A DNA stretch of 48,586 bases, from positions 16,708-65,293 of the forward strand of contig PLDO01000523.1 in NCBI GenBank assembly GCA_003136215.1, in the 5' to 3' direction. Numbering within the stretch: the first letter of the stretch is position 1; each line of letters starts with the position of its first letter. This stretch comes from Bryobacterales bacterium (GTDB lineage Bacteria; Acidobacteriota; Terriglobia; Bryobacterales; Bryobacteraceae). This document shows positions 19,048-21,993 of the stretch, piece by piece. The notes beneath the pieces are model-generated. The model had not been told where the DNA came from, ran no database searches, and saw only the letters and a program-made list of their open reading frames with translations. Made by a program: the position numbers and the translations under genes.

Positions 19048-21993
19048 ATGGAAGACAACAATACACCCCATGAATCTCTCCTGGCAGAACTGCTCGCCGC
19101 GAACGGGCGGGAATACGGTTTCGCGGCGGCGCTGGGCGCGCTGCTGTTACTGAACGTTACCGGCGTGTTCCGCTTCATCCTGGGTCTGGACACCGCGATT
19201 CTGGTCACCGTGCTGGCCGGGTACAAGACGTTTTACAACACCATCTCCGGGCTGCTGGAGAAGACCATCTCGGCGGACCTGGCGCTGTGCATCGCGGCGA
19301 TCGCGGCGCTTTCTGTGGGCGAGTACGCGGCCGCGGCCGAAACCATGTTTATCGTGATGGTGGGGGAGACGCTGGAATCGTTCGCCGCCGGCCGCACCGA
19401 AGCGGCCATCCAGCGATTCGTGGCGCGCTTGCCGCGCACCGCGCGGCGCGTGGCGGACGGCCGCGAGGAAATGGTGGACGCCGCGTCGCTCGTGCCCGGT
19501 GAGTGGATCGTGGTGAAAGCCGGCGAACGCATTGCCGCCGACGGCTTGATCGAGCAGGGAGCTTCGACTATCGACGAGAGCTCGATCACGGGCGAGTCTC
19601 TGCCGCAATACAAACGGACCGGCGACGAGGTCTTCTCGGGCACCTTGAACGGCAACGGCCTGTTACGCATCTGTGTGACTCGCGCCGGCGGCGAGACCAC
19701 GCTGGCCCGCGTCGTGGAACTGGTGAAGGAGGCCAGGGAAAGGCGCGCGCCGGTGGAGCGTTTGGCCGATCGCTACGCCAGGTACTTCCTGCCCGCGCTG
19801 CTGCTCGCCGGCGCCCTCACCTGGTATTTCACGCGCGACTGGCTGCGCACCGTGGCGGTGCTCGTCGTCGCCTGCCCGTGCGCGCTGATTCTAGCCACGC
19901 CGACGGCGATGGTCGCCGCCATCGGCGGTCTCGCGCGCCGCGGTATTTTGGTGCGCGGCGGCGGCGTCCTGCAGAACGCCGCCAAGGTGGATGCGGCCGT
20001 GTTCGACAAAACCGGCACGGTCACCGAGGGACATTTCGAGATCGCCAAAGTGATTCCGCTTGGCCGGAGCGAGGACGAAGTTCTGGCTCTGGCGGCGGCG
20101 TGCGAACGAAGTAGCGATCACGCGTTGGCACGCGTGATCGTGAACGAGGCCAGGCGGCGCGGACTGGCGCTTGCCGAGTCCGCCGACGCCCGCGCGATTC
20201 CTGGTCGAGGGGTTGAGTGCTGCCTGAACGGAAAGCTCGTCCGCACCGGCAGCGCTGCGTATGTGGTGGAACAGGTGAGCGGGAACGTGGCGCTGGTGCA
20301 GGCCGAAGCCGATCACCTCGGCGCCACGGCGGTGCTGGTGTCGGAGGATGGGCAACTGGCGGGCGCCATCCTGCTGCGCGACCGCGTCCGCGAGGGCGTT
20401 CGCGAAGCGGTCCGCGGCCTACGTTCCATGGGGATCGCCTACCAGGCGATGCTCACGGGCGACCGGCGCGGTCCGGCGGAAGCCATGGCGCGCGAGATCG
20501 GCATCGATCGCGTGGAGGCTGAACTGCTGCCCCAGCAGAAGCTGGAGCGCGTGCGCCAGCTGGCGTCGCAAGGTCGCACCGTGGCGATGGTGGGCGACGG
20601 CATCAACGACGCGGCTGCGCTGGCCGCGGCCAGCGTGGGCATCGCGGTGGCCGGCGCGAGCGACATCACGGCCGAGGCCGCCGGGGTGGTCTACCTGCCA
20701 CACTCGCTGGAGAAACTGCCACAATTGTTCGTGGTCAGCCGGCGTGCGGTCGAGACCGCGTGGCTCAATATCGTGCTGTTCGCCGGGGCGCTGAATCTGC
20801 TGGCCGTGCTGGCCTGCGCCACCGGCAAACTGGGACCGATGGGCGCCGCGCTGACGCACCAGCTTTCCTCGTTCTGCGTGATGATGAATTCCCTGCGGCT
20901 GCTGAGAGTGGAGGGCGGGCACGGGTGGTGGAGCCGCCCCCGCGCGGTCCTCGGCAGGTTGGGCGAGATCGACGGGGGAGCACGAGTCCGAGCTGCGCTC
21001 GGATGGACAAGGCGGAGCCTTATCCCACTGGCCGGAGCGTTGTTGCTCCTCAATGGATTCTACGCGCTGGGACCAGACGAGGAAGGCGTCATCGAGCGCT
21101 TCGGAAGAAAGATCGCGCCCTTCAGCATCCCCGGTCTGCACTACAAGCTGCCATGGCCCATCGAGCGGCTGACGCGCATCGCGCCGCGCCGCGTGAGGGT
21201 GGTGGAGATCGGGTTCCGTTCGAACGCCGGGGCGGCCTACACGGAGCCCTCGGCGTACGAGTGGAACGTGCAGCATCGCGGCGGGAGGTTTGAGAGCCGG
21301 CCGGAGGAATCGTCCGCGCTCACCGGGGACCAGAACATGATCGAGCTGAATGCCAGCGTGCACTACGACGTGCCCCACGCGGACGCCTTTCTCTTCCGCC
21401 AACTGGATGGCGCCGCCACGGTGCGCGCGGCGGCCGAATCGGTGATTCACGGGATTGCTTCCACCACACCGCTGGACGCGCTGCTGACCACGGGCCGTGA
21501 GGCGATCGAGGCTCGGGCCCAGGCCGAATTGCAGCGGCGCCTGGACCGCTACGAGACCGGCGTGCGCGTAATCCGTGTCAAGTTGGAGGACGTGCATCCT
21601 TCCAGCGATGTGGTGGATGCGTTCCGCGATGTCTCCGCGGCGTTCGAAGAAAAGAATCGCGCCATCAACCAGGCGCAGGGATACCGCGCCGAGCAGATCG
21701 CGCTGGCGCGGGGGAGCGCGCGCGCGTTGGCCGAGGGCGCGCGGGCATATGCGCTGGCACGCGTCAACCGGTCCAACGGCGACGCCGGCAGGTTCGCATC
21801 GCGGGAGCAGGCGTACCGCACCGCGCCGGGGGTAACGGAGACACGGCTCTATCTGGAAGCCATGGAGCAGGTTCTGCCGGGCAAGAAGAAGCTGATCGTG
21901 GATTCCAGTAAAGGGCGAAGACACCTGCTGCTGCTGGAAGACGGTGTGGAGATTGCGCCGCCGGGTGCGGCCATCACTGGGGCGAAGGAGTAG
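19048..21993 (+). CDS. P1B-type (CPC) P-type ATPase fused in frame to a C-terminal HflK-like SPFH/band-7 domain
   Basis: GGGAGGGG lies upstream of the ATG. ATPase motifs are ITGES, ACPCALILATP, DKTGTVTEG, MLTGD and VGDGINDAAALAAA, ending at NSLRLLR (~aa 625). There is no HMA domain. After a linker and a TM segment (SLIPLAGALLLLNGFYAL) comes a full HflK-like domain: GVIERFGRK, AFRDVSAAFEEKNRAINQAQGY, TETRLYLEAMEQVL. The frame is uninterrupted. Confidence 0.85.
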   Translation: MEDNNTPHESLLAELLAANGREYGFAAALGALLLLNVTGVFRFILGLDTAILVTVLAGYKTFYNTISGLLEKTISADLALCIAAIAALSVGEYAAAAETMFIVMVGETLESFAAGRTEAAIQRFVARLPRTARRVADGREEMVDAASLVPGEWIVVKAGERIAADGLIEQGASTIDESSITGESLPQYKRTGDEVFSGTLNGNGLLRICVTRAGGETTLARVVELVKEARERRAPVERLADRYARYFLPALLLAGALTWYFTRDWLRTVAVLVVACPCALILATPTAMVAAIGGLARRGILVRGGGVLQNAAKVDAAVFDKTGTVTEGHFEIAKVIPLGRSEDEVLALAAACERSSDHALARVIVNEARRRGLALAESADARAIPGRGVECCLNGKLVRTGSAAYVVEQVSGNVALVQAEADHLGATAVLVSEDGQLAGAILLRDRVREGVREAVRGLRSMGIAYQAMLTGDRRGPAEAMAREIGIDRVEAELLPQQKLERVRQLASQGRTVAMVGDGINDAAALAAASVGIAVAGASDITAEAAGVVYLPHSLEKLPQLFVVSRRAVETAWLNIVLFAGALNLLAVLACATGKLGPMGAALTHQLSSFCVMMNSLRLLRVEGGHGWWSRPRAVLGRLGEIDGGARVRAALGWTRRSLIPLAGALLLLNGFYALGPDEEGVIERFGRKIAPFSIPGLHYKLPWPIERLTRIAPRRVRVVEIGFRSNAGAAYTEPSAYEWNVQHRGGRFESRPEESSALTGDQNMIELNASVHYDVPHADAFLFRQLDGAATVRAAAESVIHGIASTTPLDALLTTGREAIEARAQAELQRRLDRYETGVRVIRVKLEDVHPSSDVVDAFRDVSAAFEEKNRAINQAQGYRAEQIALARGSARALAEGARAYALARVNRSNGDAGRFASREQAYRTAPGVTETRLYLEAMEQVLPGKKKLIVDSSKGRRHLLLLEDGVEIAPPGAAITGAKE
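20988..21028 (+). repeat. Copy 2 of the 41-nt double-hairpin repeat, inside the ATPase-SPFH ORF
   Basis: CCGAGCTGCGCTCGGATGGACAAGGCGGAGCCTTATCCCAC, 39/41 identical to copy 3. It is translated as (R)AALGWTRRSLIP at aa ~647-661, exactly between the pump and SPFH parts. Confidence 0.85.

Follow-up and report, generated by a model that had tools for sequence, protein, structure and literature searches.

A REP-like two-hairpin repeat of 'Candidatus Solibacter' lies in frame in the linker of an older heavy-metal ATPase-HflK fusion

Repetitive extragenic palindromic (REP) sequences of the GT[AG]G type are located mostly downstream of open reading frames (ORFs), a few nucleotides from the stop codon, where their termini often provide a TAG, and a variable number of them lies wholly within ORFs (Di Nocera, De Gregorio & Rocco 2013, BMC Genomics 14:522, PMC3733652). 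In Solibacter usitatus Ellin6076, a TnpA_REP protein of subclass 2.7 (ABJ86258.1) is flanked by GTGGGGCAGCCATTCCTGGCTGTC, and the genome contains about 600 class-3-associated structures as well as in-frame REP insertions within genes (Quentin 2018, BMC Genomics 19:475, PMC6006769). Palindromic repeats translated as part of proteins are also described for Rickettsia, where the Rickettsia palindromic elements (RPEs) have ~100-150 bp, contribute 30-50 amino acids and occur in dozens of genes per genome (Ogata 2000, Science 290:347, as relayed in PMC10969869). For Escherichia coli, REPs located not more than 15 nt from a stop codon are described to stall terminating ribosomes and to lower translation (ref. 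17 in PMC12306157, as summarized there). Intragenic in-frame REPs are already known, and the repeat described here is an acidobacterial addition. In this study, we analyzed a stretch of 48,586 nt from Bryobacterales bacterium (GenBank assembly GCA_003136215.1, contig PLDO01000523.1, positions 16,708 to 65,293 of the forward strand), which is called the window in the following. It contains three copies of a short dispersed repeat, one of which is read in frame as part of a 981-aa ORF (19048-21993, + strand) encoding a heavy-metal P-type ATPase fused to HflK. An earlier reading of this sequence (the original prediction) had proposed that the fusion probably arose through the repeat. The age order is the reverse: the fusion came first, and the repeat entered its linker later.

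With respect to the repeat itself, the original prediction had named a 41-mer with one copy in the fusion gene and two copies at the 3′ ends of other genes. A degenerate search with up to three mismatches recovered exactly these three copies in the window, at 5902-5942 (+), 20988-21028 (+) and 47551-47591 (-), and 100 dinucleotide-preserving shuffles of the window gave 0 matches. By flank alignment and repeat finding, the unit grows to 42-43 nt, and similarity drops abruptly at both edges. Given by the strand starting with GTGG, the intragenic element occupies 20986-21028 on the - strand (GTGG strand 5′-GTGGGATAAGGCTCCGCCTTGTCCATCCGAGCGCAGCTCGGAC; nhmmer E = 5.5e-15, besides search, alignment and translation), and the two extragenic copies occupy 5901-5942 on the - strand (C-type stem GTGGCATAAGGC...; search, alignment and nhmmer) and 47551-47593 on the + strand. 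The GTGG-strand consensus reads GTGG(G/C)ATAAGGC-NNN-GCCTTGT(C/G)C-A-TCCGAGC-NNN-GCTCGGA(C) and comprises a GTGG foot, a 9-bp hairpin A with an invariant U7.G21 (T.G) wobble pair, and a 7-bp hairpin B. This strand folds better than its complement, and the fold of the ORF-sense strand is unremarkable (z = -0.9). Within the foot, G1 is conserved in 59/61, T2 in 61/61, G3 in 59/61 and G4 in 60/61 copies, and at least 57 of the 61 have the full GTGG. As the search pattern left out positions 1-5 and 29-42, the conservation seen there is not a product of the search. In 34 distinct full-length copies, the stems are paired in 98.3% of their cells and covary: pair 5-23 exchanges C-G (19 copies) for G-C (13 copies), pair 30-38 changes from A-U to G-C, and none of 500 shuffles reached the observed covariation. 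The statement of the original prediction on stop codons was also correct, since the ORF-sense strand is open in all three frames and the opposite strand has a single stop (GTG GGA TAA), which in the copy at 47551 is the TAA ending ORF 46897-47559.

The repeat forms a family far beyond three chance matches. A scan of GTDB with one genome per species and a 23-nt degenerate core as query returned at least 75 stretches, of which at least 65 are spread over separate contigs in six metagenome-assembled genomes (MAGs) named 'Candidatus Solibacter sp.'. The 10 remaining stretches came from unrelated taxa, matched the short pattern alone, and their number was about that expected by chance. The resulting copy numbers, three per 48.6 kb in the window and at least 65 stretches across the six MAGs, are counts on MAG contigs and not on a complete genome. 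In the collected loci, nhmmer found 90 matches, among them half-elements, arrays of hairpin A in tandem and a small number of inverted pairs. Most copies are singletons consisting of hairpin A plus hairpin B, and the family is not organized as inverted dimers such as REP doublets forming hairpins (REPINs) or bacterial interspersed mosaic elements (BIMEs); inverted pairs were seen in L053 (4402-4485) and L043 (1622-1831). Among REP families, the inverted-dimer organization is not universal. The element is also modular. In L022, hairpin A alone forms a tandem array of three copies with a 31-nt period (4-94), and hairpin B likewise occurs solo; further modular or partial elements are located in L018 (391-457 and 4114-4136) and L080 (2621-2638), and variants from L039, L047 and L033 carry a different second hairpin.

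Several other identities were considered for the element. A search of the whole window against Rfam 15 at the gathering threshold yielded two tRNA genes only (8835-8907, +, and 40085-40158, -) and no match to the repeat, and at E <= 10 nothing meaningful appeared around the copy at 47551. No intrinsic terminator-like site was found at 20500-21500 or 47300-47800; the element has no T tail, and the flank beyond TCGGA is C-rich and variable. Around the two copies scanned, there were also no sigma-70 promoter-like hexamers, and with these negative scans an identity as intrinsic terminator or classical promoter was rejected. The element is also not a miniature inverted-repeat transposable element (MITE), because its two termini, GTGG... 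and ...TCGGAC, do not form inverted repeats and the flanks show no target-site duplication.

The normal location of the repeat is next to the stop codon of a gene. We surveyed 60 extragenic full-length copies for neighboring gene-like ORFs, i.e. ORFs of at least 80 codons with a high G+C content at third codon positions (GC3). In 28 of the 60 copies, a gene-like ORF terminates not more than 60 nt from the GTGG end, and in 21 of these 28 its stop ends at -2 to +9 relative to the GTGG end. Nine of the 21 stops are flush with the element (0), four share its first G (+1, TA|G), and four use the internal TAA. On the opposite side of the element, converging genes end at scattered distances of -1 to -47. 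The polarity of the family is strict, with the GTGG end meeting the upstream stop (window copies 5901-5942 and 47551-47593, loci L006-L080). Both extragenic copies of the window are located at gene 3′ ends, as originally stated. Copy 5901-5942 occupies a 49-nt gap between two convergent genes, a family 2 glycosyltransferase (GT2) gene (4285-5895, +), ending 5 nt before the copy, and the gene of an ATP-binding cassette (ABC) transporter ATPase (5945-6640, -), ending 2 nt before the GTGG end. Copy 47551-47593 supplies the stop of a 220-aa ORF without family match (46897-47559, +; GC3 0.79) by its internal TAA (47557-47559), i.e. at +9. In L057 (4223-4879; MAG Chersky.14_27), compared with window 5893-5945, the stop of the orthologous GT2 gene (90%) is not followed by a repeat, and in this MAG a repeat copy sits after the differing downstream gene instead. 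The comparison of L057 with the copy at 5901 was set aside as uninformative on insertion, window 2892-5902 being matched at 90% identity and the downstream neighbor being another one. Among the ~61 loci examined, the ATPase/HflK ORF is the one clear intragenic locus. Gene-like ORFs also span the elements in L079, L021 and L025, which were rejected as further coding cases, because the Pfam domains start downstream of the element and these copies are thus 5′-upstream and not coding.

A stem-loop with covariation, a GT[AG]G foot and an extragenic placement by stop codons are thus all found in this family, and judged by its anatomy and genomic habit alone it resembles a GT[AG]G-tagged REP. Like the members of that class, it has a GTGG-foot stem-loop with G-T stem pairs in what appear to be many dispersed copies, is sited between convergent or co-directional genes near the upstream stop, which its termini may supply, and has an occasional copy wholly within an ORF that adds in-frame residues. 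In contrast to them, it is a fixed composite of the GTGG hairpin and an unrelated 7-bp hairpin, occurs mostly as singletons instead of inverted dimers, and its intragenic copy in the window replaced resident sequence and was not a simple addition. Hairpin A shares the GTGG foot, a stem of 8-9 bp and a loop of 3-4 nt with GTGGGGCAGCCATTCCTGGCTGTC of S. usitatus, but the stem sequence differs. In the published REP lists compared, neither the 'Candidatus Solibacter' MAG hosts nor this consensus is listed, and the consensus is likewise not listed in Table S1 of Quentin 2018 (PMC6006769). Between hairpin B (e.g. window 20987-21003) and the class-3 structures with a 'CnGA foot' of S. usitatus and Legionella in the same table, the ends (T)CCGAGC...CGGA alone agree; this likeness is a lead and not a match, and it may be a coincidence.

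Similarities to the RPEs, as far as these are described in the source cited above, lie in the presence of an in-frame palindromic repeat in a conserved gene, missing from orthologues and open in the inserted orientation, and in a presumed tolerance through a permissive site. The repeat in the window differs from RPEs in its length of 42-43 nt, corresponding to 14 aa, and in its restriction to one intragenic locus among ~61. The stalling by stop-proximal REPs of E. coli reportedly goes back to work of Liang, Rudd and Deutscher from 2015. With these REPs, as far as summarized, our extragenic copies would share the geometry only, as they abut the stop (0 to +9 nt); the intragenic copy has the opposite orientation and no adjacent stop, and a stalling mechanism of that kind would be irrelevant there.

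The intragenic copy is located between the two modules of the fusion protein, for which matches to Pfam E1-E2_ATPase, Hydrolase and Band_7 were obtained. The P1B-ATPase module (aa 77-618; 19276-20901, +) scored 539.6 bits with TIGR01525 (cut-off 346.25) and has the hallmark motifs CPC (VVACPCALILATP) and FDKTGTVT; at the N-terminus of the ATPase (window 19048-19275), Pfam detected no metal-binding domain (HMA). The HflK/SPFH module (aa 671-962; 21058-21933, +; Band_7) is above the NCBIfam equivalog cut-off of TIGR01933 (190.6 bits vs 159.4), with a predicted N-terminal transmembrane (TM) helix followed by the SPFH domain. The cytoplasmic linker in between (aa 619-656; 20902-21015, +) varies more than any other part of the gene and comprises 35-116 aa from NSLRLL to GFY in orthologues. 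It is followed by the predicted HflK TM helix (aa 657-675, SLIPLAGALLLLNGFYALG; 21016-21072, +), which reached a mean of 1.63 in a Kyte-Doolittle window of 19 residues. The repeat is translated as VRAALGWTRRSLIP (aa 647-660), beginning 27 aa after NSLRLLR and not ~20 aa as first estimated. Basic residues next to the membrane come from the repeat, and so does the beginning of the HflK helix, in agreement with the original prediction: with the hydropathy window opening at aa 657, the final four codons of the repeat encode the first four residues predicted for the helix.

Homologues revealed that the fusion does not depend on the repeat. There are at least 120 clusters of fused homologues, and all of the best 120, which were examined, are fused and contain the three Pfam domains (66-96% identity, ~960-1016 aa). 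Their named members are Bryobacteraceae, and the fusion appears to be family-wide in Bryobacteraceae. A metagenome scan with the HflK part gave 80 loci with 61-91% identity; every locus having upstream sequence continues from NSLRLL into HflK without an in-frame stop, and an unfused arrangement of ATPase and hflK was found neither in these 80 loci nor in the best 120 protein clusters. The repeat is much less widespread. In 99 of the 111 linkers parsed, the repeat peptide is missing and the consensus is AAFRWLVARRRQLVKPALIAAAALIVLN with the juxtamembrane motif ..ARRRQLVKPAL.., while the repeat peptide VRAALGWTR(Q/R)SLIP is present in the query and 12 clusters only, all of which are 88-90% identical to the query. 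In the DNA, the element was found in the window and in L002, L003, L161, L162, L163 and L084-L086, all other loci being without it. The orthologues bearing the peptide also carry the repeat DNA. The repeat bearers in the fusion gene represent a shallow clade of 'Candidatus Solibacter', and the repeat-bearing allele was found in independent assemblies of JGI, ENA and NCBI. The fusion greatly exceeds the repeat in age and distribution, and the repeat can therefore not have created it. From the original prediction, the idea of a structured repeat acting as linker-coding material therefore stands, whereas the proposed origin of the fusion through the element does not.

How the repeat came into the linker can be seen from the comparison with the closest relative, L001 (P0001), which with a DNA identity of 97-98% keeps the ancestral segment. 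In every 150-nt block of the gene, L001 and the window are 96-100% identical except at 20982-21056 (+), which is the minimal allele-replacement tract. There, ~43 nt of element are present in place of ~46 nt between the shared sequences GCGTG and CTGGCC, and because the net change is -3 nt, the reading frame is kept. Orthologues without the repeat have a homologous, conserved ancestral segment at the identical position. The ancestral and the new peptide both have an R-Q-x-L-(I/V)-x-P core, a net positive charge and a hydrophobic start. A homology of the ancestral linker DNA to the repeat, including one by frameshift, was considered and rejected, as the similarity comes from the GC-rich background and short ends (CTGGCC). 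The orientation within the gene is the stop-free one, antisense to the usual orientation of the family.

Seven repeat-bearing loci have the same junctions, G|TCCGAGC and CCCAC|(T/G)G, the same orientation and the same frame, and the hairpin-B loop variant GCGCAGC is common to all of them. Because of this agreement in junctions, orientation, frame and loop variant, a single insertion event is indicated. In a neighbor-joining tree calculated with the linker left out, the distribution of the repeat is patchy within a crown group of ~90% identity. The query, which has the repeat, groups with P0001, which lacks it; the repeat is present in the P0002-P0012/P0021/P0009 clade and in P0008, and it is absent from P0013, P0014 and the outgroup P0015. 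The repeat-less alleles are not products of excision, because they keep sequence that the repeat-bearing alleles have lost. To explain the patchy pattern, either short homologous patches must have been exchanged or an old polymorphism must have been sorted, and from the sequences at hand such recombination or sorting of the two linker alleles seems plausible.

Taken together, we consider it likely that a dispersed REP-type repeat specific to a subclade of 'Candidatus Solibacter' (Bryobacteraceae, Acidobacteriota) entered the linker of an old fusion by late in-frame replacement and has been carried there as a tolerated passenger. Its normal home is the position directly after a gene's stop codon. 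In one ancestor, ~43 nt of the element replaced ~46 nt of the cytoplasmic juxtamembrane linker with the frame kept. As in ..ARRRQLVKPAL.., there are basic residues, a proline and a hydrophobic beginning in the 14 new residues (..GWTRQSLIP..), and the protein could tolerate them because these key features of the ancestral motif were kept. A passenger element would thereby have turned into coding sequence, like other intragenic REPs and the Rickettsia RPEs, and later the repeat-bearing and the ancestral allele may have spread patchily via short-patch recombination or sorting of polymorphism. The comparisons directly show that the copy belongs to the family, that the fusion preceded the repeat, that one set of junctions is shared and that linker sequence was replaced. 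From them we infer how the element was captured, that it is tolerated and not beneficial, that recombination took place, and a mobilization of the type performed by REP-associated tyrosine transposases (RAYTs). In favor of a passenger character are the restriction to one intragenic locus among ~61, the stop-free orientation, the retained core of the ancestral motif, the three changes that have accumulated in L084-L086 and the close lineages living without the repeat.

Several observations weigh against this interpretation. No RAYT/TnpA_REP was found by a search for the motif HuH...Y[IVL]xx[NQ]P, which covered ~1.2 Mb of the collected loci and no whole genomes; the label REP therefore refers to anatomy and habit only. 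With its two hairpins, the unit is a composite and neither a simple REP nor an inverted REP pair. The recombination invoked above is suggested by one tree and one sharp patch. Furthermore, the replaced segment had been the most conserved part of the linker, for which reason the term permissive site is only partly true. Finally, the copy is unusually conserved. Among the seven orthologous copies, its diversity is 0.039 compared to 0.109 as mean of the gene and 0.15-0.27 in the flanks, and only 1.5% of the 42-nt windows of the gene are as low. The diversity at third codon positions is 0.061 compared to 0.221 gene-wide, an equally low value being found in 1.0% of the 14-codon windows (0.2% without L085). 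On both sides of the repeat (20945-20986 and 21029-21070), the linker is the most variable stretch of the whole gene, with a diversity of 0.19-0.27, and it is because of these flanks that the conserved island of 42 nt is conspicuous. Diverged flanks disfavor a recent sweep of the patch, and together with the low diversity they indicate that the nucleotides are maintained, by selection or by conversion. Either selection on a DNA or RNA property or conversion against the many genomic copies would account for this, and the two are inseparable here.

These data bear directly on the strongest alternative, in which the intragenic REP is actively maintained as a DNA or RNA element, with both alleles polymorphic and shuffled by recombination. 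It could be an mRNA pause or processing site, a DNA site for RAYT or gyrase, or a 3′-end or stability element of an antisense transcript. Across seven lineages, the synonymous diversity is ~4-fold below that of the gene and the total diversity 4-7-fold below that of the flanks, the pairing is kept by covariation family-wide, and the stems are intact in 5/7 intragenic copies, the change in L163 being wobble-compatible on the GTGG strand. On the other hand, the L084-L086 lineage has three changes including one stem break and one foot change, and the lineages of P0001 and P0013/P0014 do without the repeat. The unremarkable sense-strand fold, the lack of promoter- or terminator-like sites on either strand and the lack of an Rfam family do not speak for such a function either, and conversion from the many genomic copies could yield equal conservation. 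On balance, we regard a selected function of the copy as unlikely. If it were true, the element could be recognized by the REP machinery, or its structure could mark a point of pausing or processing between the pump and SPFH modules.

Still less probable are repeated independent insertions into one hotspot across several lineages. Such insertions would explain the patchy distribution in the gene tree and the highly diverged adjacent flanks, and elements of the Y1-transposase type can be site-specific (Quentin 2018, PMC6006769). However, all seven copies agree not only in junctions, orientation, frame and the loop variant GCGCAGC, but also in the replaced extent, and an identical deletion of ~46 nt is not expected of separate events.

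The model of the original prediction, in which ATPase and hflK were separate neighbors with the repeat in the gap and were welded by stop loss or by insertion of the element, is very improbable. It would fit that the family is normally located at gene 3′ ends, where it is able to supply or abut stops, and that the element is located exactly between the two modules. But beyond the shallow clade, the orthologues are fused without the element and with a homologous ancestral linker; the best 120 clusters, mostly without the repeat, are all fused, and so are all assessable metagenome loci, which have no in-frame stop. Moreover, it was linker sequence that was replaced and not an intergenic gap. Compared with family members located behind an upstream gene, the copy has the opposite orientation, and it therefore does not fit a relic of the 3′ end of the ATPase gene. 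A chance or convergent similarity caused by coding constraint on a GC-rich linker, or an assembly artefact, has nothing but the generally high G+C content in its favor and can practically be dismissed in view of the 0 shuffle matches, the nhmmer E-value of 5.5e-15, the independent JGI, ENA and NCBI assemblies and the unrelated sequence at the same place in orthologues without the repeat.

The fusion gene is the first gene of a conserved group. Downstream, an hflC-like gene (Band_7; 22000-22890, +) is the conserved partner of the fusion, followed by a second, free-standing hflK-like gene (Band_7; 22887-23879, +), both assigned by Pfam and synteny. The operon consisting of the fusion, hflC, the free hflK and a 160-aa gene (window 19048-24362) is conserved in L001-L005 and L161-L163, and this order is common to all close and distant relatives examined. 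Right after the 160-aa gene (window beyond 24362), synteny among the relatives ends, and integrase or resolvase genes are located at the break in L002 (15773-17694) and L161 (15663-16841), which suggests that it is an integration hotspot. A literature search found no paper on a P-type ATPase-HflK fusion.

For the fusion gene, our results correct the story of its origin: an old and apparently family-wide pump-HflK fusion received the repeat in its linker only late. In this position, a conserved juxtamembrane motif and the beginning of a TM helix are now encoded by the captured repeat, by which an acidobacterial case joins the short list of REP-type repeats turned coding. As a single copy can be traced at its orthologous position in at least seven diverged lineages, the locus offers a rare natural test of whether such a copy is maintained or merely young. 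The result for synonymous sites argues for maintenance of this REP copy, and its unusually strong conservation at these sites is the one feature worth follow-up. The family itself, with its GTGG foot, its two hairpins and its placement flush against stops, is absent from Rfam and from the published REP lists compared, and for the uncultured Solibacter clade it would be a convenient marker and a candidate post-transcriptional element.

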